Source: Candidatus Altimarinota bacterium (lineage in GTDB: Bacteria > Patescibacteriota > Gracilibacteria > CAIRYL01 > GCA-016699755). From it: 64,000 bases of DNA. The position numbers and the translations under genes are program-made. The notes below the pieces were generated by a model that was not told where the DNA came from, did no database searches, and saw only the letters and a list, made by a program, of their open reading frames with translations. Shown in pieces: positions 32,968 to 55,362 of this stretch. The stretch is taken from NCBI GenBank assembly GCA_963664295.1, contig OY760935.1:64001-128000 (forward strand), read 5' to 3'. Position 1 is the stretch's first letter. Every line of letters begins with the position of its first letter.

Positions 32968-32992
32968 CTTGTTCGAGATAATAAGCCACGCT

Positions 32993-33465
32993 TTTGAGAT
33001 GGTGGAATTGGTAGACGCGAAAAAGCTTAAGCGGGCCAAGTGGCTAAGCAAAAACCACAGAAAGAAAAAATAGCGAATAAAATCCTAGATTAGAATTAAA
33101 ATAAATGTACGGGCGGGTGGTGGAATTGGTAGACGCGAAAAAGCTTAAGCGGGCCAAGTGGCTAAGCAAAAACCACAGAAAGAAAAAATAGCGAATAAAA
33201 TCCTAGATTAGAATTAAAATAAATGTACGGGCGGGTGGCGGAATTGGTAGACGCGAAAAAGCTTAAGCGGGCCAAGTGGCTAAGTAAAAACCACAGAAAG
33301 AAAAAATCGTGAATAAAATCCTAGATTAGAATTAAAATAAATGTACGGGCGGGTGGCGGAATTGGTAGACGCGAAAAAGCTTAAGCGGGCCAAGTGGCTA
33401 AGTAAAAACCACAGAAAGAAAAAATCGTGAATAAAAATCCCAGTTAAAAATAAAGTTAACAATAC
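32993..33465 (+). repeat. Four tandem 118-119 bp units, each starting with the 5' 27 nt of tRNA-Leu
   Basis: Units start at 32993 (degenerate 5' end), 33111, 33229 and 33347 with GGGCGGGTGGYGGAATTGGTAGACGCG. Confidence 0.95.
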
Positions 33466-33554
<89 letters not shown>

Positions 33555-33556
33555 TT

Positions 33557-33911
33557 TTTATCGGGGGCTTGCGTCGCCCCCCTCAGTGGCAAAGCCACTG
33601 AGCCTCCCCCCTCTCGCTCACTTCATTCGCCTTTGGCGAATTATGTTCGCTATTTTTTTAGCAAAAATTATGACCCAGAGTGGAGCAAGCTAGAGTAAAT
33701 ATGGCACGATTTATCGGGGGCTTGCGTCGCCCCCCTCAGTGGCAAAGCCACTGAGCCTCCCCCCTCTCGCTCACTTCATTCGCCTTTGGCGAATTATGTT
33801 CGCTATTTTTTTAGCAAAAATTATGACCCAGAGTGGAGCAAGCTAGAGTAAATATGGCACGATTTATCGGGGGCTTGCGTCGCCCCCCTCAGTGGCAAAG
33901 CCACTGAGCCT
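33557..33911 (+). repeat. 153-bp tandem repeat (2 full copies plus 1 partial) of REP-like multi-hairpin units
   Basis: Starts at 33557, 33710 and 33863; hairpins GGGGGC/GCCCCC, CTCAGTGGC-AAA-GCCACTGAG, TTCGCC-TTT-GGCGAA. Confidence 0.95.
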
Positions 33912-38188: not shown

Positions 38189-38268
38189 TTAAATTTATTG
38201 TGTGAAAAGTTTAATTACAATATTAAGTAAGAATTATTGCTTGATGTTGTTTTTTGTAGCACAAAGCG

Positions 38269-38321
38269 AAAATGCTTCCCCATTAGTGCCGCCAAGCAAA
38301 AAATATTCGGAGAAACATTTT
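38269..38321 (-). ncRNA. Candidate small RNA hairpin with UUGGCG loop
   Basis: 13-bp stem that pairs fully only on the minus strand (2 G-U); minus-strand TTTACT-18-TAAAAT promoter with TG extension (38357-38328) puts the predicted start at the stem base. Confidence 0.55.
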
Positions 38322-38401
38322 CATTTTATTTTATCATAAAATTTTATAAGAAGTAAAGTGTTTTTTCCTATTATTTTTATATATAAAAAACAGATTTACT
38401 C

Positions 38402-38430
38402 TTGACAAATATTCTTTTTTATTATACAAT
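38402..38430 (+). promoter_or_regulatory. Sigma70 promoter for the PrsW-family gene leader
   Basis: TTGACA-17 bp-TACAAT. Confidence 0.75.
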
Positions 38431-38460
38431 ATATAACGAAGATAACAAAAAAATATGTTA

Positions 38461-38518
38461 AAAATGCTTTCTCCCTTAAACAGTGCCGCCAAGCAAATAT
38501 TCGGAGAGACATTTTTTT
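38461..38518 (+). promoter_or_regulatory. Leader hairpin with CGCCAA loop and U-tract, paralogous to 38269-38321
   Basis: AAAATG(C)TTTCTCC/GGAGAGACATTTT stem, inner TGC-CGCCAA-GCA, T7 run; lies inside possible uORF 38455-38538. Confidence 0.55.
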
Positions 38519-38694
38519 ATAATTTAACCCCATTTTAAACAAAAATTAAAATTCGGAAATTAAAAGTAAGTATTAATTTAGGCTGAAAAAGTAGTTTTTA
38601 CTCATTTTTTATTTAGTAAAAACAATCTAATCGGTTTTTAAAGAGCTTGCTTTACACAGAAGTCTTGGTGGCAAAAAATTTAACCCAAAAAAAA

Positions 38695-39342
38695 ATGACC
38701 GCCAAGCTTTTTTTAGTGATTATCGGACTTCTTCCGTTCTATATCCTGATCTTAAAAACCATTGAAAGTAAATCAGGATCTTCTTTCAAGCAACTGAGTA
38801 AGTTTTTTTACTGTGGAATTTTTGTCACGGTGCCGTTTACGATTTTTTATAAATTAGGGCTTAATGCTGGGATAATGCATACTTATTTTGGTGTGCTGGG
38901 GACTATTTTTTTGCTGGCATTGCTTGAAGAATTTTTGAAGTTTTATATTTTTTACTATTTAAATGACAAGGAGCATTCGCGACTTTATTTCTACCTTGTG
39001 CTTGCTTTGGGTTTTGCTTATGCAGAGAATGTGTTTTATTTTTTGGAGTCTTATGATTATTTTTTCTATAACTTAGTTGGTCTTTTTGCTGTGTTTTTTA
39101 GACTTATTCTTGGCAGTTTTGCGCATGCTACTTTTACTGCAATTCATGGACTTATTTTTAGTTTTAAGGTTAGAAGCTATTTGGGTCTTATTTTAGCCAC
39201 TTCTGTGCATTTTATTTTTAATTTTTTCTGCTCAGAAGGATTGGCAATGTTTTTACCTTTGCTTTTGTTGATGAACACTTTATTGATTATTAAATTATTG
39301 AAATATTCAAAATTAAGGAAAATTTGTTTTGTTGAACATTAA
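38695..39342 (+). CDS. PrsW family intramembrane glutamic/metallo-protease
   Basis: LLEEFLK, LGFAYAEN, FR, AHATFT and SVHFIFN motifs in a multi-TM protein; ATG at 38695 preferred over TTG at 38647. Confidence 0.85.
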   Translation: MTAKLFLVIIGLLPFYILILKTIESKSGSSFKQLSKFFYCGIFVTVPFTIFYKLGLNAGIMHTYFGVLGTIFLLALLEEFLKFYIFYYLNDKEHSRLYFYLVLALGFAYAENVFYFLESYDYFFYNLVGLFAVFFRLILGSFAHATFTAIHGLIFSFKVRSYLGLILATSVHFIFNFFCSEGLAMFLPLLLLMNTLLIIKLLKYSKLRKICFVEH

Positions 39343-39358
39343 AATTGGCTGATTATTC

Positions 39359-39387
39359 TTGATTTTTCTGCTTTTTTTTGTTAAAAT
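39359..39387 (+). promoter_or_regulatory. Sigma70 promoter for the giant gene
   Basis: TTGATT-17-TAAAAT with TG extension. Confidence 0.6.
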
Positions 39388-39423: not shown

Positions 39424-42400
39424 ATGAAAAACAAAAAACAAAAAACAAAAAAAAATGGATTTTTTTCTAATTTAGGCACTAAATTTATTGTTTTAGCTTT
39501 TGTTTTTCAATGTATTTTTCCTTCTTCAGCAATTGCAGAAAAAGTTGTTGATGATTTTTCAGAAACAGCAAAAACAACAGAGCAGGATTTTGAGGTAGCG
39601 ACAGAGGATGAGGTAAATATAACAGAAGAAACAGTAAACACAGAGGAAAATTCAGCAGAAAACCAAGAAATACTAGAGAATGAAGAGGTGGAAGAAGTAG
39701 GAACTCAACAAGAATTAGAGAAATTAGAGCCAGAAGAAACAAAAGAAAATGAACTTGAGATAGAAATTAAAGATGCAGTAGTAGCTCCGGAAGAAATTAA
39801 AGAAGAAGTAAAAGAAGAAAGTAATCAAGAAGAAAATTTAAATAATCAAGAAGACCAATTTTTAAAAGAAAATACTGCAAATCAACAAAAAGCTTCCTTG
39901 TTGGACAGTATTTTTCCTGAAGAAGAAGATGAGCCCAAAGAGGAGTTTTCAGAGTTTGGAGACGAAGAAGAGAATGATAAAAACAAAGAAAATAGTAATA
40001 ATGTTGATGAAGAAACAGTAAGTACTCCAGAAATTGAAGCATTAGCAAATGTGCAACCTGATTTGAAAAAAAATAGCAAAGAAGAAAGGAAAGAAGCAAT
40101 GGAAGATAAAATTGTCGAAAAATTAATAGAAAGAGAATTTACAGAAAAAGACTTGCTAATATCAGCAAAAGAAAATGGCATTGAAAGTATTAAAAATGAA
40201 AATCCTGAAAAAGCTCCTGAGCTTATTGAGGAATTAAAAGAAGAAGGTGTTATTGCTACAATTATTGACAATAACGGCATAGAAAGAGAATTAAATTCTG
40301 AATTAAAAATAAAAGAAGAAAAAAATCATTTTAATACTAAAAATACTGCTTATGAAACAGAAATACCATTAGAAGCAAGTGATTTAATGGTTATTGCAGA
40401 AGATGAAGAGCTTGCAGGAAAGTTAATTGACTCAAAAGAAAAAAAAGTTATTCAGCAAGATTTTACTCCTGAGACAAGAGAGGAAATACGCTATTTGATG
40501 CGAGATGTTAATAAATCTAATGCTATTCAAGATGGTAATAAAGTTTTGTATCAAGATATTTGGGAAGAATCTGATTTATTGGTAACTACTTTAAATCAAG
40601 GAATAAAAGAAGATATTATTTTAAAAAACTCTAATGCACCATTAGAATTTGATTATGTGATTGAAACTGTTGGCTTAGAGCTTGTTGTTAAGGGGGATGG
40701 TGGACTTTCTTTTGTGGACAGAAAAGGGCAAGAAAAATTTTACACTCCACCGCCAAATATAACTGATGTTAATGGGTTTAAATCTTCTAATAGTATTCGT
40801 TATGAGTTGGGCTGGGGACAGCAGAGACCTCAAACCTCAGAAGAAAATACAGAAGAAACTCAAGAAGAAGTAGTTCCAGCAGAAATTGAAACACCAACAG
40901 AAGAAAACCCAGTTGAACAAGTAGAACAAGAAACTCAAGAAGAGCAAGTAGAACAAGAGGAGGTAATTAGTGGCGAAGAAGAATTTTTTGCTCCAGAACC
41001 TAAAGATCCAGAAACTTCTCAAGCCTCAGAAGAAAATACAGAAGAAACTCAAGAAGAAGTAGTTCCAGCAGAAACTGAAACACCAACAGAAGAAACCCTA
41101 GTTGAACAAGTAGAACAAGAAACTCAAGAAGAGCAAGTAGAACAAGAGGAGGTAATTAGTGGCGAAGAAGAATTTTTTGCTCCAGAACCTAAAGATCCAG
41201 AAACTTCTCAAACCTCAGAAGAAAATACAGAAGAAACTCAAGAAGAAGTAGTTCCAGCAGAAATTGAAACACCAACAGAAGAAAACCCAGTTGAACAAGT
41301 AGAACAAGAGGCAACTCCTGAAAGCGAACAAGTAGAACAAGAGGCAACTCCTGAAAGCGAACAAGTAGAACAAGAGGCTCAAGAAGAAGATATTGCTGAA
41401 GAAATTGTTTCTTTTGGTGATTTTTTTGTTCCTGAAAAAAGAAAGGCACATTTCGCATCTTATTCTGAAGGGATAGTAAGAATGAAAAAACAAATTTTTG
41501 ATCCTGAAAATTATGAAAAAATAATTAAAAAAACTTACGAAAGTGTTCAGGAGGAAGTGAGAAATTTTTCTCTTATTAGAAATGAGCACTTATTTGCATC
41601 AAGTGAACAAGATGCAGACTTGTTTGATTTTTTGGTCGCAGAAGCAGGCGCAGAAATATCAGAGGAAGAAATGCTTCAAGCGGAGTCTGCCGAAACAACA
41701 GAAGAGCAAGCAGGGGAGTCTGTGGATACAACTACTGAAACAACAGAGGTATTTATTGAAGAAGATTTTACAGTAGAAGTAGAAGAAGTTTTAGATGATA
41801 CCGCAGAAACAGAATTAGAAGGCAATAATCAAGAAAATAATGATGAAAACTTATTATCACAAGATGAGAATATTGATAGTACCAATTTAAATGATGGGCA
41901 AAATAATGAACAAGATTTATCGTTAGAACAAGAAGGTCAAGCTGAACAAGATGAAGATAATCAGGGAAATGTTCAAGAAAGCAATCTTGATAATCAGGAT
42001 ATTATTCCTGAGCAAGAACAAGTTGAGGAAGTTGATAGTCAGGAAGACGATTTTGATCAAGAAGAAGAAAGCGCGGAAACAGACTTATCTGATCAAGATG
42101 ATGCTAACAGTCAAACAGGTGAAGAAATTGTGAGCGATACTTTGGAAAATTTAGAAACAGAAGAGCAAATAAGTACAGAAGAAACAACACAAGAAGAAGC
42201 AAATGAAACAGAGCAAGAAAATATACAAGATTTTAACGAAGAAGAAGAAAACACTAATCAAACTGAAGATCAATTGCAAAGTGCTCAAGAAGATCAAATT
42301 TCTTCAGCAGAGGAAGAATTTTTTGCTCCTGAGGTGTCAGTGCAAGATTCTAATTTTGATATAAGAAAATTTGAAATCGAACAATTTAAAAATTCATATG

Positions 42401-45400
42401 AAGATTATCAAGAAATAGAAACCCAAAATGGTATTTTGCGCAGATATAAAATAAAATTAAAAATAGAAACAAAAAAAGAAATAGAGCAAGATCAAAATGC
42501 AGTGACATTAAAAAATGGACTTACATTGAGTTATCCTCTTGATGTTGATCCAACTTTTTATGTTGTTACATTTGATTCAATAGAAAAAGAGACTATTGCA
42601 ATGGGACAAGCTTCAATTTATGCTAATTTATATAATGATAATAAAGATTACTGGAACTTAAAATCACCTTCTAGGGTTTTTAAAGACAGTGCTGGTCATT
42701 TTTTTGTTGTTGATCAGCAAAATCATAGAGTAAAAATATGGAATAGTGAGCCTACATCTTATAATGACAAACCAGACATTATTTTAGGTCAATTTGATGA
42801 ATATGCAACTAGTAGTACAAGTGTTACTGCTGGTAGTTTTTATCAGCCTTATGGTATTGCTAGTGATGGAACTAGATTGGCTATTACTGATAATGGTCGT
42901 CATCGTGTTTTAATTTGGAATACTTTTCCAACTGAAAACAATCAAGATGCTGATTTGGTAATTGGACAAACTAGTTTAACTGCTTCTGGGTCAAACAATG
43001 GTGGTCGTGACGCAGGCTCTCTTTATTATCCTTCGGGAGTTTTTATGACTAATAATAAATTATTAGTTGCTGACACCAATAATCATCGTGTTTTAATTTG
43101 GAACACTTTTCCAACTGAAAATAACCAAGATGCTGATATAGTTCTTGGTCAGCCTGATTTTACTGGTGGATCTGCTAACAATGGTGGTCGTGACGCAGGC
43201 TCTCTTTATTATCCTAATGGTGTTTGGACAGATGAAACCAAATTGATGATTGCTGATTATTATAATCATCGTGTTTTAATTTGGAATACTTTTCCAACTG
43301 AAAATAATCAGGACTCTGATGTAGTTATTGGTCAAACTGATTTTACATCTAGCTCTTCATCAAGTGCTGTTAATGGTCTTTATAGGCCAAGATGTGTTTA
43401 TTTTGATGGATCAAAATTATTTATAACCAGTACAAGTGCGCATAAAGTTTTTATATATAATAGCATACCTAGTGCAAATGGAGTGTCAGCAGACATTACT
43501 GTTGGAACAGGTAGTGCTAGTGCGACTCAAGATCGATTAAATAACCCTGGAGGAGTTTTTTCTGATGGCACTAAGCTTTTTGTTGCTGATACCAACAATC
43601 ATCGTATTATGGTTTGGAACTCAATTCCAACCACAGACAGTGAAAATGCTGACTTGGTAATTGGTCAAACTGATTTTACTTCCAATATCACAAGCTTACC
43701 AATGGACGGAAGTGAACTTAGTAGTCCAGGTTATGTTTTTAAAGACATTAATGGTCGTGTTTTTGTGGCAGACACAAGTAATAACCGTGTTCTTATTTGG
43801 GATCAACAACCCACTGACTTTAATGTTCCTGCTGATGTAGTTGTTGGTCAAAGTAATATGACTTCCAACAGTTATTCTTGTTCTAGTACTAGACTCAGAT
43901 ATCCTCAAGAAGTTTACAGTGATGGCACTAAGCTTTTTGTTCTTGATACAGACAACAATCGTATTCTTATTTGGAACTCAATCCCAACTAGCAATGGTCA
44001 AGCTGCTGATGTGGTTGTTGGTCAGGATGATTTTACTACTAACAGTGTAAATGCTGGAGAAGGATGGTCATCAAATAATAAAGGTTTTAACGAGCCTTAT
44101 GGTTTTGCTGTTCATGATGGAAAATTGTTAGTTGCTGATAAAGAAAACCACAGGGTTCTTGTGTGGAACTCAATCCCAACAAGCAATGGTCAAGTTGCTG
44201 ATTTAGTAATAGGTCAGGACGATTTTGGATACAATAAATCAAATCGTTTTAGCAGTTTAACAACAGCTCCAGGTCATGTTTTTAAAGATGTTAATGGTCA
44301 TTTTTATTTAGCTGACAGTAGTTATAATAGAGTTTTAATTTGGTTTACTGAACCTTTGAACGACACCACTGTTCCTGATCTTGTTCTCGGTCAACCTAAT
44401 TTTATTGAAACTACTGGTAATAATGGTGGTTATTCAAAAGGCCTTAGTGATCCTTATGCTGTTTATAATGATGGAGTGAGACTTTTTGTTGCAGATACTG
44501 GCAATAATAGGGTTTTAATTTGGAACTCAATGCCAACTGAAAATCATCAGGCACCTGATCTTGTTCTTGGTCAGCCAGATATGACCACTAATTCAGCAAA
44601 TTATGGTGGAATAAGCGCAAGTACTTTTTATCGTCCTACAGGTGTTTATAGTGATGGAAATAAAGTTTATGTTTATGATCGTGTAAATAATAGGGTTTTA
44701 ATTTGGAATTCAATCCCAACTAGCAATGGTCAAGCTGCTGATCTTGTCTTAGGTCAAAACGATATGACTTGTACTACCAACAATAATAATGGTAGCTGTT
44801 CAGGTGGTAGCGTTGCTGATAATAATTTTTATTTTTATACAAATAATAACACTCATCAACCTATTGCTGGTGATGATACTTATTTTTATGTTTCTGACAC
44901 ATATAATCATCGTGTTTTAGTTTGGAATAAGGCTAATATTACAACAAATATGCAATCTGCGGATTTTGTTGTTGGTCAAGATGATTTTACAAGTTCATCT
45001 TATGTTCAAAATAATAAAAATGGTTTATATAGACCAAATGCTTTGGCTGTAAGTGATAGTAAATTATTTATAGCATGTGATGACGGAACTTTAAGAATTT
45101 ATAATCCAAAACCAACCACAAATACCAAGGTGGCAAATGTTATTGCTACTAATGGTTTTTATACTGTTTTTGCTAATAATCAAAAATTATATTTACCAGG
45201 TGCGCGCAAAGTTTGGAGCACAATACCAACTATTGACACAAGTGTGCATTCTTTTAGTTATTATTTTTCAAAGGCACCTAATGCTATCACTGCAAATGCT
45301 TTTGACACACCTTATAGTGTTGATGTTAGCTCTGACGGGAAAATGATGGTTGCTGATTATGAAAATAGTCGTGTTTTGATTTGGAATCAAATTCCAAATG

Positions 45401-48400
45401 ATAATACTACCTCTGCTGATGTTGTGGTTGGTCAGATGTTTTTTGATAAAAAAACCACTGGTTCTGATGCTGATAGCTTAAATAAGCCAGTTGACGCCTT
45501 TACTGATGATGAACGTTTTTATGTTGTTGATCGTAATAATGGACGAGTTCTTATTTGGAACCAAGTTCCAGAAGAAAATAATGCATCCGCTGATTTTGTT
45601 GTAGGTCAACCAGATTTGATTACCACGGGGCATAATACAGGAGGAATTGGTGAAAATTCTTTATATAATCCTGCTGGAGCTTTTTCTGATGGCGAAACTA
45701 TGTTTATTGCTGATCAGTCAAACCATAGAATACTTGTTAAGCCTATAGACTTTATTGCTGATTATCAAATATCAGCTGATATGGTAATAGGTCAGCCAAG
45801 TTATTACACAAATGATATAGATCATGTTGAAATTCAAAATTTATATCAACCAACTAGTGTATTTAAAGACAGTGTAGGAAGATTTTATGTTGTTGACACT
45901 AAATTTAACAGAATAAAAATTTGGAACACAGAGCCAGCAGATAACTCAGTAGAACCTGATTTAGTATTAGGTCAGTTGTATCATTATCGCACAACAGAAA
46001 ATGATGGAGGAGCTGGCATTGGAACAATGAATCAGCCATTTGATGCTTATAGTGATGGCGACAGGCTTGTTGTTTCTGATGGAAACAATAATCGTGTTCT
46101 TATTTGGAATGAATTTCCAACAAATGAAGACAAAAATCCTGACTTAGTCCTTGGTCAAACAGATTTTAGTGGTACTTATGGCAATATGGCAACTACTATT
46201 ACTAATAAAGGATTAAATGCCCCGAGAGGTGTTTTGATTGTAAATGGAAAATTGGTTGTTGCTGACTCAAGCAATAATCGTGTTTTGATTTGGAATGAAT
46301 TTCCAACAGAAACCGGTCAGCCTGCTGATGTTATTCTTGGTCAGCCAGAGATTGGCGTAGTTACTGCTAATAATGGTGGCATAAGTGCAAGTTCGATGAA
46401 TGGACCTACAGGTCTTTGGAGTGATGGCACCAAGTTGTTCGTTGCTGATATGGGCAATAATCGTGTTCTTGTTTGGAATGAATTTCCAACAGAAATTGGT
46501 GAACCAGCTGATTATGTAATTGGTCAGGCTGATTTTGTTTCTAATGTTTCTAGTAATTCTGCTAGTGGTCTTGCTAATCCTTATGATATTGAGAGTGATG
46601 GCACTAGATTGTTTATTTCACTTCGACCTTATAATGTTATTTTTGTTTATAATACAATTCCAACAGCAACTGGTGCTACTGCTGATTATGTGATTGGACA
46701 ATCAGGATTTGGCTCTAATTCAAGTACTCTTGATGCAAGTCATTTGTATTATCCAAATGAATTTTTTGTTGATAGCAGTAAAGTTTATGTTGCAGATAAT
46801 TATCATCATCGTATTATGATTTGGAATAGTATTCCAACTACTAGCGGAGTGAGTGCAGATAAGGTTATAGGGCCTGATGATTTTACTAGTACAGCAGAAA
46901 ATGTAAGAGATGGTATTGGGCTTAGGGATCCTTATGATGTCCATGTAGACCTAAATGGAAAAATGTTTGTTGTTGATAATAACAACAACCGTGTGCTTAT
47001 TTGGAATTCTGTGCCAACTGACAATAAAACGCCTGCTGATGTTGTGCTGGGGCAATCTAACATGAGCACCAATGGTTATGCCAGTGGCTCAACAGGATTG
47101 CGTAATCCTCAAAGTGTTTATAGTGATGGAACTAAGTTGTTTGTCGCTGATTATGGCAATAACCGTGTTTTAATTTGGAACTCAATACCAACTAGCAATG
47201 GTCAAAGTGCTGATGTAGTTGTTGGTCAAACTAATTTTACCAACACTGGAGGATCAGATAGTTATACAACCGATAGTGATAAACTTACTCGCCCAACAGC
47301 AGTACAGGTTTATAATGGTAAATTATTAGTTGCCGACAAAGAAAGCCAGCGCGTTCTTATTTGGAATTCAATACCAACTACAAATGGTCAAGATGCTGAT
47401 GTTGTAATAGGTCAGCCAAATATGACTGTGAAAGAATATAATTTTCCAGAAACATATCATACGAGTGGCGATGAGCTTAGTGATCTAACAAAAGACTCTA
47501 GCGGAAAATATTACTTTTTAGATAGAGGTTATAATCGTGTTTTGATTTTTAATTCAAAGCCAAGTTCGCGAAATCAAGTGCCCGATGTTGTTGTAGGTCA
47601 GCCTAATAAGTACTTAATTCATGCAAACTCAGGAGGATCACTTACTGCCTCAACATTGAAATTACCTTGTGGTTTGGCAGTTTATGGTACGAAATTAATA
47701 GTTGCTGATTCAGACAATAATCGTGTTTTGATTTGGAACACAATTCCAACTACAGATGGTCAATCCGCAGATGTTGTGCTTGGACAAGCAAGTTTTACAT
47801 CAAGTAGTTCAAATTATGGTGGTCGTTCGGCTTCTAGTTTAGCTAATCCTAAAGATGTGGCTGTGACAGCTGATGGCAAGTTGCTTGTTGCTGATCAAGG
47901 CAATCATCGTGTTTTGATTTGGAACACTATTCCAACAGCAAATAATGCCTCTGCAGATGTGGTTATGGGGCAATCAGACTTTACAAGCAATACAACAAAC
48001 GGGTCGGACTTAATTCATTTATATGTTCCTAGATCAATTACTATAGAAGGGGACGAAATTTTAGTTGCAGGAAATAAATCAATGATTTGGAGTTCTTTAC
48101 CAACAACTAATGGTGAATCAGCTTATTATTATGGAGGAAATTATGATAAATTATTAGTAAAGGGTGATTGGCTTTATTATACTTATAACAATATCTATAA
48201 AACTGCTTGGCCATTGGGTGCAAGTCCAAGTTGGGAGCTCGTTGGTTCAGCCTATACTGACAACATGGAAGATCTTGGTGATGGTGATTATTTCTATACT
48301 TTTAGTGATTACTGGGAAGAATGGGAAATCCCTTGCGATGCTTGTGAAGATAATTATAGTACGGATATTACTTGGGGTTATCATAAAGAGAAACGAGATG

Positions 48401-51400
48401 ACACTCTTTATAACCCAGAAGACCTTTATGTAGATGGTAATGGCAAGTTATATATTGTTGATAGTCTTAATTATCGCATATTAGTTTATAATTCCATTCC
48501 TACTAGTAATGGTGCTAGTGCTGATTTAGTTTTTGGTGATAGTAATTATACATTGACACCAAAAGCAGTTTTTGCGAGAGATGATGGCAGAGTGTATGTT
48601 TCTGATAATTACGACAGAATACAATATTGGGATAGTGTATCTAGTGTTTTGGATATGCCAGATAAAACTTTTGGCCAAAGAGAATTAAACGGAAAAGAAG
48701 GTACTGATACAGGGCCCCATACGCTAACAGGGGCTATCTATGGCATTTATGGTGATGACAACGGTCTTTATGTTGCTGATAAAGATGATAATCGTGTTTT
48801 AATATTCAAGCATTCAGGAGCGCCTTCAGTTAATAACTTAATGCAATATGAAAATAATGGCACAACAGAAATACCAACAGGTGAGTCAACATATAGCGGA
48901 GAAACAAATAATATAGTTATTAAGGCTGACTTAAACAATCCTCTTAATGAAATTGATCAATCGCAAGTAAAAATGTTTGTGGAAGTTCAGAGATTAGAAG
49001 ATGATTTTGTTAGCTCTGGTTCCGAAATATATGATATTGCTCTGATGGCTAATGACCCTGAAAATGGCAACAAAGTGACCAGCGGAACAGGCATATATCA
49101 AAGCACTTGGTCTGCATTAGGGGATTATAGCTCAACTGCTTATGAGTCTGTAATCAATATTACTGATTTGGATAAAAGGCTTTATAAATGGCGAGCAATA
49201 GCATATAACGGTAGTCAATATTCATATTGGCAAAGAAAAGGTTCTTGTCAGAGTTTTGTTATTGCTTCTGCAACTGCTCCAGTTTTTGTTTCTGCGGATC
49301 AGTTCAAGACAGACGCAGTGACTAATATTCCAAACACAGAATATACAAATGAAACAGCAGTAAGACTAAAAGCATCTGGTACTGACGCGGACTCAGATTC
49401 ATCATTAATATTTTATTTTGAGTTAAGAAAAAATACTGATTCTTTCAGCTCTCCCGCTATTCCAAATATGTGTGATGCTTGTCCAAGTGGAACAGGTTTT
49501 GATAATTGTGCATCAAAAATTTGGTATGTGACATTAGATGAAGGGGATTATACAACTACTCCAGGAGAAGGCATTGTTCATATTCTTGGACTTAGTAATG
49601 ACGAATATAAATGGCAAGTAAATGTTTCAGATGGAGGTAATTTTGCTGGCTGGGAAGCCTACAACACAACTACTCCTAATTTTGAAGTAGATTATTTAGT
49701 GCCAGTGTTTACAATCACAGATGATGTTCATGCAACTTGGAACACAACAGACACAATTGCTGTCTCTGTTGTTGACCAAGGCCCATCAGACATAGATGAA
49801 ACATATTGGACATATTCAGAAGATGAATTCTGTAATTCAGAAGATGTGTTTGCTAATACAGGAACCAGTGTTGATGTTGCTGATTATCAGAAATATGTTT
49901 GCTTTAAATCATTTGATAACGCGGGTAATTTTGCTTACTCATCAGTAATTGGTCCTTTGAAATGGGACATTACAGGTCCAACTTTTACAATCACAGATGA
50001 TATAAATTCAACTTGGAATACTTCTGATACAGTTGAAGTTAGTGTTGCTGATCCAAACACACCATTTGGCCCTGATGGTTCGGGCATAGGAGCAACAACG
50101 AATTGGGGATTTTCTTCTAATGCAATTTGTAATGCAAGTGATAATTATGGCAATAGTGGTACTTCAACTGGCGCAATAACAACTGACCACACAGATTATG
50201 TTTGTTTTACCAATACGGATCAACTTGGAAACATTGGTTATTCTGAAGCAATAGGACCATTAAGAGTAGGAACAGAAAAGCCAACTTTTACTATTACAGA
50301 TGGAGTGAGTCATTTTTGGAATACAGAAGACACAATTGCAGTTAATGTCACTGCTTCAGTAGGTGGCGACCCAGGCACAACTTATTGGGGATTTTCATCA
50401 GATCCTGGCTGTGATGACACAGACACTTATCCAAACACTGGTAGCTCTTTACTTGTTAATTCAGGTCCACACACAGATTATATTTGTTTTACTAATACAG
50501 ATACACTTGCTCGTACAGGTTATTCTGCTCCGATTGGTCCTTTAAAATGGGATACTGCAAAGCCGGTAGTGACTTCTTTAAGTGTTAGCCCAAGCTCTGT
50601 TAACCCAGGTGGCATAGGTAATATTACTACTGATGTTTCGGATGCTGATTCAGGAATTAATACATGTAAAGCATGGCTTTCTGATTTTCCTGGTTTACCA
50701 GCATTATTGCTTCATTCTAACAATGATAATGCCTCTACCACCTTTAATGATTCTTCAGAAAATGACTATACACTTAATTTACATGGCAACATAAAACATT
50801 CTATTTTACAGAAAAAATTTGGTAAAAGCTCAATCTTTTTTGATGGTAATTCATACTTAAGTATTGATAATAATGATGAGTGGGATTTTGGAACAAACGA
50901 TTTTACAATTGATTTTTGGATTTACCCGCAATCAAATGGAGCATCAGAACATAATGGTATACTTTCTAGTATAGACACTAGTAATCAAGGTTGGTCTTTT
51001 GAGCTAGATGATTCTGAGAATATAAGATTTTTTGCTAGAGATAGCGGAGGAACAATGTTTATAACACTAGAAGGTTCAACATCGCTAAGCTTAAACACTT
51101 GGCATCATGTTGCCTTAATTAGAAATGGTGATGATTTTAACTTATATGTAAATGGACAAAGTGTTGATTCTGATACAAAAATAAACGCAATTGACAATTT
51201 AGATAATGAACTTTGGATTGGAAAAAGAAATAATTATCACAATTTTAGTGGTTATCTTGATGAAATACGCGTAATAAAAGGAGTTGCTCGCTGGACAGAA
51301 AATTTTTCTGGTAATTTACCAAGCACAATTCATGCAGATGAAATATTTTTAGCTAATCTTGGCACTGATTGTGATGGCCCTGCTAGTTTTCCAACAGAAA

Positions 51401-53628
51401 TTGGTGATTACTACTTAATAGTACGTCCTGAAGATGTTGCAGGAAATGGACACATAGAAACAATTTCTGTTTCTGTAAGCCTTAATTCTAATCCTGCTCC
51501 GCCAACTTCATTGCAAGTTGAAGACCAAGGCGGAGAATCTGTTCCTGTTTCATCATTAACTCCAAGTTTTACAGCAGTGTTTAATGATAATGGTGGTGAT
51601 ACAACAAGTAATTATCGCATTCAAGTTGATGATAATAGCGACTTTTCAAGCCCTGTTTGGGATAGTGGCGCTGATACTGCCACAGCAATTACAACTTGTG
51701 CTGATTTACAAAATATCAACAATGATTTAACAGCAGATTATTATTTAGCAAATAATATCGATTGTGCAGATACTAGCTCTTGGAATAGTAATTCAGGATT
51801 TTTACCAATTGGTACACAATCAACTCCGTTTACAGGCACTTTTGATGGTCAAGGCTATGAAATACAAAATTTATTTATAGATAGAAGTGCAAGTAATAAT
51901 ATTGCTGTGTTTAGCTATATTGATAGCGCGAGAATATCGAATTTGTCTCTCACAAGCTTAGATATAACAGGCAATAACACAACAGCTGGATTAGTTGCCA
52001 ACATGAATAATTCTATTATTAGTGATTGCTCATCAGCAGGTTCAATTACAGGTAATGACACAGTTGGTGGCTTAATTGGTATTACAACAGGTGTTTCAAA
52101 AATATTAAAATCATTTGCCAATACAACATTAAATGCACATGACACAGCTGGCGGATTAGTGGGAAATAATAATGCAAAAATATTAAAATCATACGCCACA
52201 GGCTCAATCACAGCCAATGACAATGTAGGTGGTTTAGTAGGTGAAAGCAGTGGTGAAGGCAGGATCTTTTATTCCTATTCCGAAGCTACAATAAACGCTA
52301 ATTCCAATGTAGGTGGTTTAGCAGGATACAATCATACAGATAGCGAAATAGTAGATTCATACTCAAAAAGCAACATCACAGCCACCAGTTATGCTGGCGG
52401 AATAATAGGCAAAAATGAAAATGGCAGAATAAGCAGATCTTATGCCTCTGGTTCAATGTCAGGGTCTAATTTAAGTGGATTAGTAGCAAATAGTTTATTT
52501 ACAGAAATTTATGATTCTTATTGGGACACAGAAACAAGTGGACAAGCAAGTAATTCAAGTGGCGGAGATGGAAAAACAACAACGCAAATGTATCAACAAG
52601 CCACTTTTACAAATTGGGATTTTGCAGATACATGGACAATAAACGAAGGACTCGGTTATCCATATTTAAAATGGCAAGACGAAACAGGTGGCTTTAGTGG
52701 TACAGCAGGTACAAGAACTTCAGAAATAACTTATTCAGGACCAGATCTTGAAGATGGCACAACTTATTACTATCGTGTTAAGTTTTATGACCAGACAGGC
52801 GCAGAAGGTGATTGGAGCACAGAAACAGCAAGTTTTGATGTAGGTTTTGATTTTGATTCACTTTATAAACGCCAAGGAAATCATCAATTAACAGAAAAAA
52901 ACGCATTAACTGAAGAAGATATTAAAGTAGAACTAAAAACAGCCTATGGCGATCCAGCAGAAGCAGGAGATGGCGTAATAGATTTTCAAATAATTCAAAC
53001 ACCACAAAGCCCAGCAAGTGAAGGGTATGAATTACAAATGGGCACATCTGGACAAAATCCAACAGTAATTGACCCAAGTCACATTACAGTTGAAACAGAT
53101 GCAGAAGGAAAAGCCAGTGTAAAACTAAAAATGGGCGATAGAGCAGGAGATTATTTAATTAGATCAAAATATAATGACGGAACAAAAGATATTATTCAAG
53201 AATTCACAATAACTCAGCCAGAAAATTTTGAGCTCAATATGGACGCAACCAATATGAGTATGGCAAATGACTCATATAAACAATTAAGTGAATCAACTGT
53301 AAATATAACAACACAAACAAACGCTTCTAGCTATAAAGTATTAGTTCGACCAACAACTTGGCTCGAAAATCAATCAGCAACACACACTATTCAAAATTGG
53401 GACTCAGGCTCAAGCACAGGATTTGGTTGGAAAATAGACACAGATCCAACATTAAGTAGCTTTGAAGAACCACCTGCCTATACAGAAGTATATCATTGTC
53501 AAAGTACTGATAATTGTCAGGAATTAAAAAATATAACAATAGACCTAGGAACAGCAACAGATTTCAGCATACCAGCAGGTATATACACAGATGTTTTAGA
53601 TGTAAAAATAGAAGAAGTGCAATATTAA
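39424..53628 (+). CDS. Giant (4734 aa) secreted surface protein: acidic regions, tandem NHL beta-propeller repeats, Ig/FN3-like, LamG-like and GLUG-like domains
   Basis: Signal peptide (..PSSAIA); dozens of P.GV.SDG.KLFVAD..N.RVLIWN.IPT..GQ.AD.V.GQ.DF repeats (~42600-48810); WHHVALIR..FSGYLDEIRV; VGGLVG repeats. Confidence 0.9.
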   Translation: MKNKKQKTKKNGFFSNLGTKFIVLAFVFQCIFPSSAIAEKVVDDFSETAKTTEQDFEVATEDEVNITEETVNTEENSAENQEILENEEVEEVGTQQELEKLEPEETKENELEIEIKDAVVAPEEIKEEVKEESNQEENLNNQEDQFLKENTANQQKASLLDSIFPEEEDEPKEEFSEFGDEEENDKNKENSNNVDEETVSTPEIEALANVQPDLKKNSKEERKEAMEDKIVEKLIEREFTEKDLLISAKENGIESIKNENPEKAPELIEELKEEGVIATIIDNNGIERELNSELKIKEEKNHFNTKNTAYETEIPLEASDLMVIAEDEELAGKLIDSKEKKVIQQDFTPETREEIRYLMRDVNKSNAIQDGNKVLYQDIWEESDLLVTTLNQGIKEDIILKNSNAPLEFDYVIETVGLELVVKGDGGLSFVDRKGQEKFYTPPPNITDVNGFKSSNSIRYELGWGQQRPQTSEENTEETQEEVVPAEIETPTEENPVEQVEQETQEEQVEQEEVISGEEEFFAPEPKDPETSQASEENTEETQEEVVPAETETPTEETLVEQVEQETQEEQVEQEEVISGEEEFFAPEPKDPETSQTSEENTEETQEEVVPAEIETPTEENPVEQVEQEATPESEQVEQEATPESEQVEQEAQEEDIAEEIVSFGDFFVPEKRKAHFASYSEGIVRMKKQIFDPENYEKIIKKTYESVQEEVRNFSLIRNEHLFASSEQDADLFDFLVAEAGAEISEEEMLQAESAETTEEQAGESVDTTTETTEVFIEEDFTVEVEEVLDDTAETELEGNNQENNDENLLSQDENIDSTNLNDGQNNEQDLSLEQEGQAEQDEDNQGNVQESNLDNQDIIPEQEQVEEVDSQEDDFDQEEESAETDLSDQDDANSQTGEEIVSDTLENLETEEQISTEETTQEEANETEQENIQDFNEEEENTNQTEDQLQSAQEDQISSAEEEFFAPEVSVQDSNFDIRKFEIEQFKNSYEDYQEIETQNGILRRYKIKLKIETKKEIEQDQNAVTLKNGLTLSYPLDVDPTFYVVTFDSIEKETIAMGQASIYANLYNDNKDYWNLKSPSRVFKDSAGHFFVVDQQNHRVKIWNSEPTSYNDKPDIILGQFDEYATSSTSVTAGSFYQPYGIASDGTRLAITDNGRHRVLIWNTFPTENNQDADLVIGQTSLTASGSNNGGRDAGSLYYPSGVFMTNNKLLVADTNNHRVLIWNTFPTENNQDADIVLGQPDFTGGSANNGGRDAGSLYYPNGVWTDETKLMIADYYNHRVLIWNTFPTENNQDSDVVIGQTDFTSSSSSSAVNGLYRPRCVYFDGSKLFITSTSAHKVFIYNSIPSANGVSADITVGTGSASATQDRLNNPGGVFSDGTKLFVADTNNHRIMVWNSIPTTDSENADLVIGQTDFTSNITSLPMDGSELSSPGYVFKDINGRVFVADTSNNRVLIWDQQPTDFNVPADVVVGQSNMTSNSYSCSSTRLRYPQEVYSDGTKLFVLDTDNNRILIWNSIPTSNGQAADVVVGQDDFTTNSVNAGEGWSSNNKGFNEPYGFAVHDGKLLVADKENHRVLVWNSIPTSNGQVADLVIGQDDFGYNKSNRFSSLTTAPGHVFKDVNGHFYLADSSYNRVLIWFTEPLNDTTVPDLVLGQPNFIETTGNNGGYSKGLSDPYAVYNDGVRLFVADTGNNRVLIWNSMPTENHQAPDLVLGQPDMTTNSANYGGISASTFYRPTGVYSDGNKVYVYDRVNNRVLIWNSIPTSNGQAADLVLGQNDMTCTTNNNNGSCSGGSVADNNFYFYTNNNTHQPIAGDDTYFYVSDTYNHRVLVWNKANITTNMQSADFVVGQDDFTSSSYVQNNKNGLYRPNALAVSDSKLFIACDDGTLRIYNPKPTTNTKVANVIATNGFYTVFANNQKLYLPGARKVWSTIPTIDTSVHSFSYYFSKAPNAITANAFDTPYSVDVSSDGKMMVADYENSRVLIWNQIPNDNTTSADVVVGQMFFDKKTTGSDADSLNKPVDAFTDDERFYVVDRNNGRVLIWNQVPEENNASADFVVGQPDLITTGHNTGGIGENSLYNPAGAFSDGETMFIADQSNHRILVKPIDFIADYQISADMVIGQPSYYTNDIDHVEIQNLYQPTSVFKDSVGRFYVVDTKFNRIKIWNTEPADNSVEPDLVLGQLYHYRTTENDGGAGIGTMNQPFDAYSDGDRLVVSDGNNNRVLIWNEFPTNEDKNPDLVLGQTDFSGTYGNMATTITNKGLNAPRGVLIVNGKLVVADSSNNRVLIWNEFPTETGQPADVILGQPEIGVVTANNGGISASSMNGPTGLWSDGTKLFVADMGNNRVLVWNEFPTEIGEPADYVIGQADFVSNVSSNSASGLANPYDIESDGTRLFISLRPYNVIFVYNTIPTATGATADYVIGQSGFGSNSSTLDASHLYYPNEFFVDSSKVYVADNYHHRIMIWNSIPTTSGVSADKVIGPDDFTSTAENVRDGIGLRDPYDVHVDLNGKMFVVDNNNNRVLIWNSVPTDNKTPADVVLGQSNMSTNGYASGSTGLRNPQSVYSDGTKLFVADYGNNRVLIWNSIPTSNGQSADVVVGQTNFTNTGGSDSYTTDSDKLTRPTAVQVYNGKLLVADKESQRVLIWNSIPTTNGQDADVVIGQPNMTVKEYNFPETYHTSGDELSDLTKDSSGKYYFLDRGYNRVLIFNSKPSSRNQVPDVVVGQPNKYLIHANSGGSLTASTLKLPCGLAVYGTKLIVADSDNNRVLIWNTIPTTDGQSADVVLGQASFTSSSSNYGGRSASSLANPKDVAVTADGKLLVADQGNHRVLIWNTIPTANNASADVVMGQSDFTSNTTNGSDLIHLYVPRSITIEGDEILVAGNKSMIWSSLPTTNGESAYYYGGNYDKLLVKGDWLYYTYNNIYKTAWPLGASPSWELVGSAYTDNMEDLGDGDYFYTFSDYWEEWEIPCDACEDNYSTDITWGYHKEKRDDTLYNPEDLYVDGNGKLYIVDSLNYRILVYNSIPTSNGASADLVFGDSNYTLTPKAVFARDDGRVYVSDNYDRIQYWDSVSSVLDMPDKTFGQRELNGKEGTDTGPHTLTGAIYGIYGDDNGLYVADKDDNRVLIFKHSGAPSVNNLMQYENNGTTEIPTGESTYSGETNNIVIKADLNNPLNEIDQSQVKMFVEVQRLEDDFVSSGSEIYDIALMANDPENGNKVTSGTGIYQSTWSALGDYSSTAYESVINITDLDKRLYKWRAIAYNGSQYSYWQRKGSCQSFVIASATAPVFVSADQFKTDAVTNIPNTEYTNETAVRLKASGTDADSDSSLIFYFELRKNTDSFSSPAIPNMCDACPSGTGFDNCASKIWYVTLDEGDYTTTPGEGIVHILGLSNDEYKWQVNVSDGGNFAGWEAYNTTTPNFEVDYLVPVFTITDDVHATWNTTDTIAVSVVDQGPSDIDETYWTYSEDEFCNSEDVFANTGTSVDVADYQKYVCFKSFDNAGNFAYSSVIGPLKWDITGPTFTITDDINSTWNTSDTVEVSVADPNTPFGPDGSGIGATTNWGFSSNAICNASDNYGNSGTSTGAITTDHTDYVCFTNTDQLGNIGYSEAIGPLRVGTEKPTFTITDGVSHFWNTEDTIAVNVTASVGGDPGTTYWGFSSDPGCDDTDTYPNTGSSLLVNSGPHTDYICFTNTDTLARTGYSAPIGPLKWDTAKPVVTSLSVSPSSVNPGGIGNITTDVSDADSGINTCKAWLSDFPGLPALLLHSNNDNASTTFNDSSENDYTLNLHGNIKHSILQKKFGKSSIFFDGNSYLSIDNNDEWDFGTNDFTIDFWIYPQSNGASEHNGILSSIDTSNQGWSFELDDSENIRFFARDSGGTMFITLEGSTSLSLNTWHHVALIRNGDDFNLYVNGQSVDSDTKINAIDNLDNELWIGKRNNYHNFSGYLDEIRVIKGVARWTENFSGNLPSTIHADEIFLANLGTDCDGPASFPTEIGDYYLIVRPEDVAGNGHIETISVSVSLNSNPAPPTSLQVEDQGGESVPVSSLTPSFTAVFNDNGGDTTSNYRIQVDDNSDFSSPVWDSGADTATAITTCADLQNINNDLTADYYLANNIDCADTSSWNSNSGFLPIGTQSTPFTGTFDGQGYEIQNLFIDRSASNNIAVFSYIDSARISNLSLTSLDITGNNTTAGLVANMNNSIISDCSSAGSITGNDTVGGLIGITTGVSKILKSFANTTLNAHDTAGGLVGNNNAKILKSYATGSITANDNVGGLVGESSGEGRIFYSYSEATINANSNVGGLAGYNHTDSEIVDSYSKSNITATSYAGGIIGKNENGRISRSYASGSMSGSNLSGLVANSLFTEIYDSYWDTETSGQASNSSGGDGKTTTQMYQQATFTNWDFADTWTINEGLGYPYLKWQDETGGFSGTAGTRTSEITYSGPDLEDGTTYYYRVKFYDQTGAEGDWSTETASFDVGFDFDSLYKRQGNHQLTEKNALTEEDIKVELKTAYGDPAEAGDGVIDFQIIQTPQSPASEGYELQMGTSGQNPTVIDPSHITVETDAEGKASVKLKMGDRAGDYLIRSKYNDGTKDIIQEFTITQPENFELNMDATNMSMANDSYKQLSESTVNITTQTNASSYKVLVRPTTWLENQSATHTIQNWDSGSSTGFGWKIDTDPTLSSFEEPPAYTEVYHCQSTDNCQELKNITIDLGTATDFSIPAGIYTDVLDVKIEEVQY
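40835..41378 (+). repeat. Intragenic in-frame tandem repeats: 189 bp x about 2.5, then 33 bp x about 2.6
   Basis: CCTCAGAAGAAAATACAGAAG at 40835, 41024 and 41213; EQVEQEATPES repeats from about 41293. Confidence 0.9.
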
Positions 53629-54799: not shown

Positions 54800-54959
54800 T
54801 TAGTTTAAAATTCTTAATTTGATTATATCAAAACATAAAAAATAACATATTGAATTCGCCTTGAGCCTTTTTGACCTCTTAATTGTCAACGGGGTCATTG
54901 GTTCGCATAAGTTTTCATAATTAAAACAACCTCATTCCTACGGCATGAGAACATTTTAA

Positions 54960-55306
54960 TGGTGGAGCATATCGGACTCGCCCTCCGCTCCAAGTTTTCG
55001 TTTATAACGAAAAGCTTTCCACTTCGGGACACCGTTGACTCTTGATTATATGGGGTCATCGATTCGAGCTCAAATAAGCCTAATTAAAAAAATAACATGC
55101 TTTTAGCATGTTCTTTTTTTAATGGTGGAGCATATCGGACTCGCCCTCCGCTCCAAGTTTTCGTTTATAACGAAAAGCTTTCCACTTCGGGACACCGTTG
55201 ACTCTTGATTATATGGGGTCATCGATTCGAGCTCAAATAAGCCTAATTAAAAAAATAACATGCTTTTAGCATGTTCTTTTTTTAATGGTGGAGCATATCG
55301 GACTCG
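54960..55306 (-). repeat. Two tandem 163-bp units downstream of tRNA-Ala, each ending in the 21-nt tRNA 3' end
   Basis: TGGTGGAGCATATCGGACTCG at 54960, 55123 and 55286; intervening sequences identical. Confidence 0.95.
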
Positions 55307-55362
55307 AACCGATGACCCCCTGCTTGCAAAGCAGGTGCTCTAGCCAGCTGAGCTAATGCCCC
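55286..55362 (-). tRNA. tRNA-Ala(TGC)
   Basis: GGGGCAT...ATGCTCC-A-CCA with G3-U70, anticodon loop TT-TGC-AA. Confidence 0.97.

Follow-up and report, generated by a model that had tools for sequence, protein, structure and literature searches.

A conserved, apparently undescribed hairpin RNA family at prsW leaders of Patescibacteria, predicted to act as an antisense sRNA

Introduction

What would two copies of one hairpin, associated with divergent promoters, do in front of a protease gene? The question is raised by a 64-kb stretch of DNA (the window; positions are counted from its first letter, position 1) from a Candidatus Altimarinota bacterium whose genome (the source genome, G000) is a single 1.22-Mb contig; other G numbers denote genomes of relatives. 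The window holds a ribosomal protein gene and tRNAs, and its intergenic region 38189-38694 has an AI-2E transporter gene on one side and a gene for a PrsW-family protease on the other. Bacillus PrsW cleaves an anti-sigma factor. Named homologs of the AI-2E transporter are mostly from Peregrinibacteria, Gracilibacteria and other Patescibacteria. The original prediction, made from this stretch, held that a minus-strand RNA from the first hairpin controls the prsW leader, which carries the second, by pairing of complementary loops. Here, we characterize the two hairpins, their relatives in other genomes and their possible targets.

Results

Both hairpins were found as predicted, as direct repeats at 38269-38321 (copy 1) and 38461-38518 (copy 2) that have AGTGCCGCCAAGCAAA and AATATTCGGAGA in common, and the 1.22-Mb genome holds no copies beyond these two (blastn, E 4e-8; nhmmer). 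Short-read contigs, possibly from the source sample itself, contain the stretch without change, and the contig of a related strain reaches just part of copy 1. A peptide common to both copies was considered and rejected, since a 5-nt indel breaks the frame. Copy 1 folds well on the minus strand only (-16.4 kcal/mol, z -3.39, 0 of 200 shuffles as good), its plus strand giving -6.1 kcal/mol and a z of -0.36. For copy 2, the proposed preference for the plus strand holds by z-score (-2.67 vs. -1.69 on the minus strand) but not by energy (-13.0 kcal/mol on the plus and -14.0 on the minus strand). The proposed hexaloops likewise stand in part: the plus-strand CGCCAA is fully open, but RNAfold closes the minus-strand loop with a U.G pair, leaving a UGGC tetraloop. 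The predicted sRNA promoter on the minus strand (TTTACT-18-TAAAAT with a TG extension, 38328-38357, ending at 38328) and the predicted prsW promoter on the plus strand (TTGACA-17-TACAAT, 38402-38430, start about 38437) are both present, as is the T7 tract at the end of copy 2 (38512-38518). In relatives, too, the leader hairpin is preceded by promoter-like sites on the sense strand. A duplex of the copy-1 RNA with copy 2 is predicted at -69.9 kcal/mol. At the sequence level, therefore, the locus has divergent promoters and a candidate sRNA complementary to a 5′ UTR.

Repeats of other kinds occur in the window and beyond. About four tandem 118-nt units (32968-33600), each with the 5′ part of the adjacent tRNA, precede its intact gene (33466-33551), and a ~153-nt unit is repeated 3′ of that gene. 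At 54950-55362, tandem 163-nt units carry the 3′ end and trailer of a minus-strand tRNA (55289-55362). Many intergenic regions of the source genome (e.g., G000:C1, 233344-234401, 268340-269990, and 657474-658741) contain copies of a highly abundant modular repeat whose ends read TGTCATT/AATGACA and whose units resemble hairpins; we would liken it to REP clusters.

Homologs of the hairpin were sought in several ways. A sequence-only model built from the two copies gave 10 weak matches in 149 other genomes of the class; one, in G021, was real, with a hairpin like that of the source genome, a complementary arm (see below) and a gene start reading ATG GCC GCC AAG CTT. A three-sequence PrsW protein profile matched in 11 of 401 genomes. 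Three of these were ordinary long PrsW genes without the motif. The other eight make up a short subfamily; the hairpin is present in the leader of seven of them, including that of the source genome. A structure model (R2) gave 22 matches in 150 genomes: eight training sequences, five new real hairpins absent from the training set (a second G053 copy, G084, G064, G111, and G137) and nine that were dropped. These nine weak matches, and one to a refined model (R3), are plain terminator hairpins without the loop and the promoter. Downstream of the G137 hairpin, a further divergent PrsW-subfamily gene came to light (L134:1632-2279); its catalytic motifs are apparently partly missing (EEHIR, YTD), and its leader keeps the sRNA hairpin. 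G036 has a stand-alone hairpin gene elsewhere, and its prsW retains the start site and the AUG-enclosing stem described below; the stand-alone copies in G053 and G036 bear the antisense promoter. Together, these searches yielded a family of 14 hairpins in 12 genomes from six families of one class of Patescibacteria, which are ultra-small bacteria, with an invariant UGGCGGC loop.

R3 found nothing real in 80 further genomes of the class and had no match in 149 genomes across the phylum. Since none of seven genomes of the source genome's own family gave a real match, the distribution of the hairpin is narrow and patchy. A plain DNA search of 40 relatives returned AT-rich noise only, and exact 12-mer matches in G001 and G005 were rejected as they lie in coding sequence. 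Pattern scans gave five genome-contig and two viral matches, which are chance-like, and none in metagenomes; two stricter viral patterns gave none, and the two PrsW loci from a metagenome protein scan were ordinary and without the motif. No hairpin was found in the regions downstream of 29 AI-2E homologs, so the element tracks prsW and not AI-2E. At the gathering score, Rfam 15 matched only tRNAs in the window and 15 related loci, the sub-threshold matches being to unrelated miRNA and snoRNA models. 6S RNA was considered and rejected; it was not found in the genome, and its architecture does not fit. No published description of this RNA was found in the part of the openly accessible literature that was searched, though large RNA-motif surveys could hold one. 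The hairpins form a real and conserved family of probable sRNAs, apparently undescribed, with what would be antisense control of a known type in a new form.

Which strand is conserved as RNA can be judged from the family. On the UGGCGGC strand, 12 of the 14 hairpins have an extended -10 box at a distance of 39-47 nt from the loop, as against 0.5% of draws at random intergenic positions of the source genome; the exceptions are copy 2, which has no antisense box, and G137, with a weak non-extended one. In the lower stem, five of 12 pairs show double-sided change and 89.7% of cells are paired, values that 0 of 500 shuffles reached. Because the structure of the model guided the alignment and the sequences share ancestry, this result is supportive and not a probability. 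Across 13 sequences, the lower-stem cells of this strand comprise 107 Watson-Crick, 33 G-U, three A-C and 13 other combinations. The A-C cells are confined to two leader copies, copy 2 and that of G053, and these are the ones for which a stand-alone duplicate exists. Promoter, fold and the G-U/A-C pattern together indicate that the conserved entity is a hairpin RNA of the antisense strand, usually overlapping the prsW leader. Because the better fold, the covarying stem and the extended -10 box all belong to the UGGCGGC strand, copy 1 likely encodes a ~60-nt minus-strand hairpin sRNA (38262-38322) with the apical seed GCUUGGCGGC and a U-rich end. The core of the original prediction, a putative copy-1 sRNA that pairs with copy 2 in the prsW leader, has thereby gained strong comparative support from the conserved antisense promoter, the strand-specific G-U pairs, the covarying stem and the kept linkage to prsW. 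We regard it as quite probable that the sRNA is transcribed and acts by pairing.

Most relatives have one hairpin, which is antisense to and overlaps the prsW leader, so that overlap of the two putative transcripts is predicted at their leader copies. In the source genome, the promoter-bearing copy lies ~190 nt upstream of the leader copy, and the antisense promoter is found at copy 1 only. The claim that the antisense RNA arose by duplication rather than overlap is accordingly right for the source genome, but overlap is usual in relatives, and duplication beside the target is particular to this genome. We infer from these arrangements that the hairpin was duplicated and that copy 2 then lost its antisense promoter. 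Three genomes of family f24 (G084, G064, and G111) retain the hairpin and both promoters, and the prsW-subfamily gene is gone from the locus. In two of these, G064 and G111 (L124 and L125; G084 is L123), the sense transcript may be non-coding or may serve the next sense gene, which we take to be an rlmN-like gene.

The product of prsW (38695-39342, plus strand) is a 215-aa PrsW-family intramembrane metalloprotease (PF13367) of the short subfamily, with EExxK, EN and His residues conserved. A homolog with 71% identity, also of 215 aa, begins MTAKLF, which places the start at the ATG at 38695. Among 13 aligned subfamily proteins that are not of the f24 type, K4 is invariant and 10 begin M-x-A-K-L, an N-terminus that the retrieval query itself had and thus favoured. 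The original prediction also mentioned the giant surface protein whose gene (39424-53628) comes after prsW; we saw no link of the RNA to it, as that gene has its own promoter-like site (39359-39387) and relatives have other downstream neighbors. The protein itself, of 4,734 aa, contains NHL, laminin G, GLUG and Ig-like domains.

A feature unseen in the original prediction is a copy of the loop word at the start of prsW (38697-38707), with its complement 22-32 nt upstream (38663-38673). This arm, TCTTGGTGGCA, complements both the copy-2 loop and prsW codons 2-5, and equivalent arms are found in G021 and G093. The start site, ATGACCGCCAAGC (38695-38707), places the sRNA seed match on codons that are rare for a genome of 33% GC (joint probability 0.0003-0.0006 given the residues) and forms the 3′ side of a predicted stem (38658-38711) that encloses the AUG, with predicted core pair probabilities near 1. 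Among 967 start regions, that of prsW ranks third for pairing with either loop strand. Opening it was computed to cost 10.9 kcal/mol in the free leader and 2.2 with the arm and loop held out; occlusion of the start is, however, only in the top 8% among 323 sampled ORFs. SD-like motifs precede 2% of the 967 called ORFs (≥90 aa) in the source genome and are thus scarcely used, so start accessibility should matter. Pairing of the leader loop with the arm reaches -18 to -20 kcal/mol in the source genome, G021 and G093, with at most 1 of 300 shuffles as good (-18.4 kcal/mol and 1 of 300 in the source genome). Over eight loci, a loop complement near the start is predicted to pair strongly in these three, weakly in G028 (25 of 300 shuffles as good) and as the start stem only in G036, and is absent in three, namely the f24 leaders tested (G075, G041, and G053). 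Being weak in G028 and absent in f24, the arm does not point to a family-wide switch. Between copy 2 and the arm, a long leader hairpin is predicted (38563-38653, pair probabilities mostly >0.9). An upstream ORF of 24 codons, possibly for a leader peptide, starts from an ATG in the copy-2 stem (38464-38538; alternative ATG at 38455). With its end at 38538, it stops 157 nt short of the prsW ATG, so no leader peptide lies beside the start codon. ORFs of this length from the stem ATG are also found in G021 and G093, with unrelated peptides, and any ORF spanning the loop occurs in four of 11 leaders.

Sites for the seed were also found at other genes. The 9-mer CCGCCAAGC has 13 sites in the source genome: two in the hairpins, five antisense to ORFs, two inside ORFs and four near a start. 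Of the six matches that are neither in hairpins nor antisense, four thus fall 4-15 nt past an ATG, and none of the five antisense-oriented matches is near a start. The genes concerned are prsW, one for a HisKA/HATPase kinase, one for an uncharacterized protein of 115 aa, and a 28-aa ORF that has a consensus promoter to itself. Three of these sites were in the counted gene list, where permuted 9-mers gave a mean of 0.023 near-start matches and 0 of 300 reached three. The near-start sites lie in two reading frames, which points to RNA and not protein. In ten other genomes, early-coding sites of this type are not enriched. The unannotated 28-aa ORF (L194:1222-1308; G000:C1:376721) has a TTGACA-17-TACAAT promoter much like that of prsW and a 13-nt match to the seed region; it may encode a small protein or serve as a second sponge. 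Of the seed duplexes predicted in the source genome, the strongest (-29.2 kcal/mol) falls within a gene (G000:C1:755131) that presumably is recA-like.

In f24 genomes, the seed and loop are one base shorter and prsW lacks the start site. A site variant that matches this seed stands immediately before the AUG of a DHH/DHHA1 phosphoesterase gene in seven of seven f24 genomes examined, which are kin and count as one origin, and the DHH site is absent in three of three genomes without the sRNA; in one f24 genome, G102, which is 74% complete, the sRNA gene was not found. Across five f24 genomes, five of 18 fetched non-hairpin exact matches stand directly before an ATG. The coding region of the DHH gene carries a 19-nt match in G137, a 14-nt one in G093 and a 10-nt one in G021, and the site is absent in the source genome, G028 and G036. 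The DHH/DHHA1 phosphoesterases (L169-L172, L189-L193) have low-complexity C-terminal tails of 170-400 residues, four f24 members ending in DIERALGGL. A link to c-di-AMP was considered and is unsupported, as DAC was found in one of five genomes. Judging by these sites, a small number of additional mRNAs are likely repressed through this seed, at three further starts in the source genome and at the DHH phosphoesterase of relatives.

Discussion

Taken as a whole, the data make it likely that a ~60-nt, Hfq-independent hairpin sRNA from copy 1 represses translation, copy 2 being its near-complete complement in the predicted prsW leader. Neither Hfq (PF17209) nor Rho was found in the complete source genome. 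Repression would result from pairing of the sRNA loop with GCCGCCAAGC-type sites, and prsW itself is probably repressed in this way. How prsW would be turned on is a matter of modeling, and we hold activation by a pseudoknot with slightly less than even confidence. When the sRNA is missing, the copy-2 loop, transcribed first, would capture the arm at 38663-38673, leaving the A-rich, SD-less AUG open so that PrsW is made. When the sRNA is present, a loop-loop kiss on copy 2 would extend to a long duplex, and the freed arm would pair with prsW codons 2-5 and enclose the AUG in an off state; the sRNA may also bind these codons directly. By means of the same seed, it would repress the histidine kinase, the 115-aa protein and the 28-aa ORF in the source genome and the DHH/DHHA1 phosphoesterase in relatives, with the prsW leader titrating the sRNA. 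Copy 2 could also terminate transcripts at its T7. Ancestrally, the sRNA gene would have overlapped the leader, from which it was duplicated out in the source genome. Translation initiation activated by a pseudoknot is described as rare (PMC11295053); here, it would act on an ordinary chromosomal enzyme.

Other readings of these observations can be weighed against this one. It is possible, if rather doubtful, that the sRNA is real and represses by covering starts but that there is no pseudoknot switch, the arm being a static brake and copy 2 mainly a sponge or a terminated decoy RNA. The absence of the arm in f24 and its weakness in G028 fit such a reading, as do the three genomes in which hairpin and sense promoter persist without prsW, and the T7 end and gained plus-strand pairing of copy 2. 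In the source genome, G021 and G093, however, the arm fits both the loop and the start, it differs from the source genome to the other two by a compensatory U-A/A-U change in the loop-arm pairing, and all three have the 24-codon ORF from the stem ATG.

A role for the motif at the level of protein binding is unlikely. GCCGCCA(A)GC would then be a site for an RNA-binding translational repressor or a DNA operator-binding factor, with the hairpins as decoys or operators. The promoter and stable fold on the strand complementary to the sites speak against it, as do the antisense promoter of the stand-alone G053 and G036 copies, the lineage-specific matches of 13-19 nt and the want of any start near the five antisense-oriented matches of the source genome, even though copies of the motif near promoters and start codons share one orientation and its f24 form, TAGCCGCCAGCTA, is partly palindromic. 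It is very improbable that a terminator-like hairpin was merely duplicated locally and neutrally, without any regulatory pairing. The genome does have many local duplications of 80-400 nt, mostly at tRNA genes and repeat elements, and the hairpins have U-runs on both strands in a genome where Rho was not found; yet across six families the UGGCGGC loop is invariant, the promoter keeps its distance and the hairpin stays linked to one PrsW subfamily and to start-codon matching sites, and the ordinary terminators matched by the model have neither loop nor promoter. Conservation thus largely refutes neutral duplication.

The system has likenesses to several known ones. In ColIb-P9, the leader loop of repZ and the kissing antisense RNA Inc compete, the loop pairing close to a start that is masked (PMC4705826), and a UUGGCG target loop is named in a reference title cited there. 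Features in common, by prediction in the present case, are a ~60-nt single-hairpin antisense RNA with GGCG/CGCC loop contacts (PMC4705826; PMC10724649), a stem that masks the start codon, and a loop in the leader that competes with the antisense RNA for pairing near the start; a short upstream ORF (here in three genomes) is a further one. IncK RNAI measures 60-61 nt, and its top and interior loops are critical (PMC10724649). Here, in contrast, the RNA is chromosomal, its target is a protease and not a replication initiator, the sRNA carries UUGGCG and the leader loop CGCC, a mirrored polarity, there is no SD, the upstream ORF stops short of the prsW start, trans targets are predicted and the sRNA gene lies outside the leader in some genomes. 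Where IncI and IncB elements sit on a plasmid upstream of an initiator, these hairpins lie in a single-contig 1.22-Mb genome upstream of a PF13367 gene. Since no plasmid sequence gave a match covering the hairpins and Rfam gave none, the likeness to plasmid loops is probably convergent.

With timP/TimR, a Salmonella type I toxin-antitoxin system, the locus shares, by prediction, a divergent chromosomal sRNA and a leader pseudoknot that activates translation and is disrupted by the sRNA (PMC11295053). It differs in that the target is a 215-aa PrsW-family protease where timP encodes a toxin of 38 aa, that the loop of the pseudoknot would itself be the sRNA's binding site and TimR binds elsewhere than in the pseudoknot, and that several targets are predicted; the target is no small hydrophobic toxin, as its ORF encodes the 215-aa protease and the sequence of the upstream peptide is not conserved. 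Lacking plasmid, initiator and toxin, and with mirrored polarity and a leader peptide that stops short of the start, the source-genome system is a member of neither the ColIb-P9 nor the timP/TimR class. The predicted loop-loop kiss from CCG/GGC, the YUNR-type loop and the bulges in the stems, through which pairing could propagate, recall CopA/CopT of R1, in which the YUNR loop is on the target CopT (PMC10798244) and not, as here, on the putative sRNA; we found no leader peptide translationally coupled to the gene. Repression within a five-codon window is established for Hfq-dependent seed sRNAs, which likewise pair by a short seed with several mRNAs, either in the first five codons or right in front of them (PMC7769764). 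Unlike in those sRNAs, no Hfq was found here and SD use is almost nil, the seed is in a hairpin loop and one target is also a near-full-length complement.

The literature searched yielded no account of regulation by base-pairing sRNAs in Patescibacteria, and the family offers a testable sRNA case in genomes without Hfq and nearly without SD sequences. It is possible, at somewhat less than even odds, that these bacteria have a chaperone-free, SD-independent sRNA regulon in which a mirrored ColIb-P9 switch gates a protease, and which has moved from cis to trans at least three times independently (in the source genome, G053 and G036), gaining phosphoesterase and histidine kinase targets as seed and sites co-varied. 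The genomes would also provide living intermediates for how cis-antisense RNAs become trans regulators, in a series of overlap only, duplication beside the target, duplication elsewhere, full relocation, and retention after loss of the original target gene.
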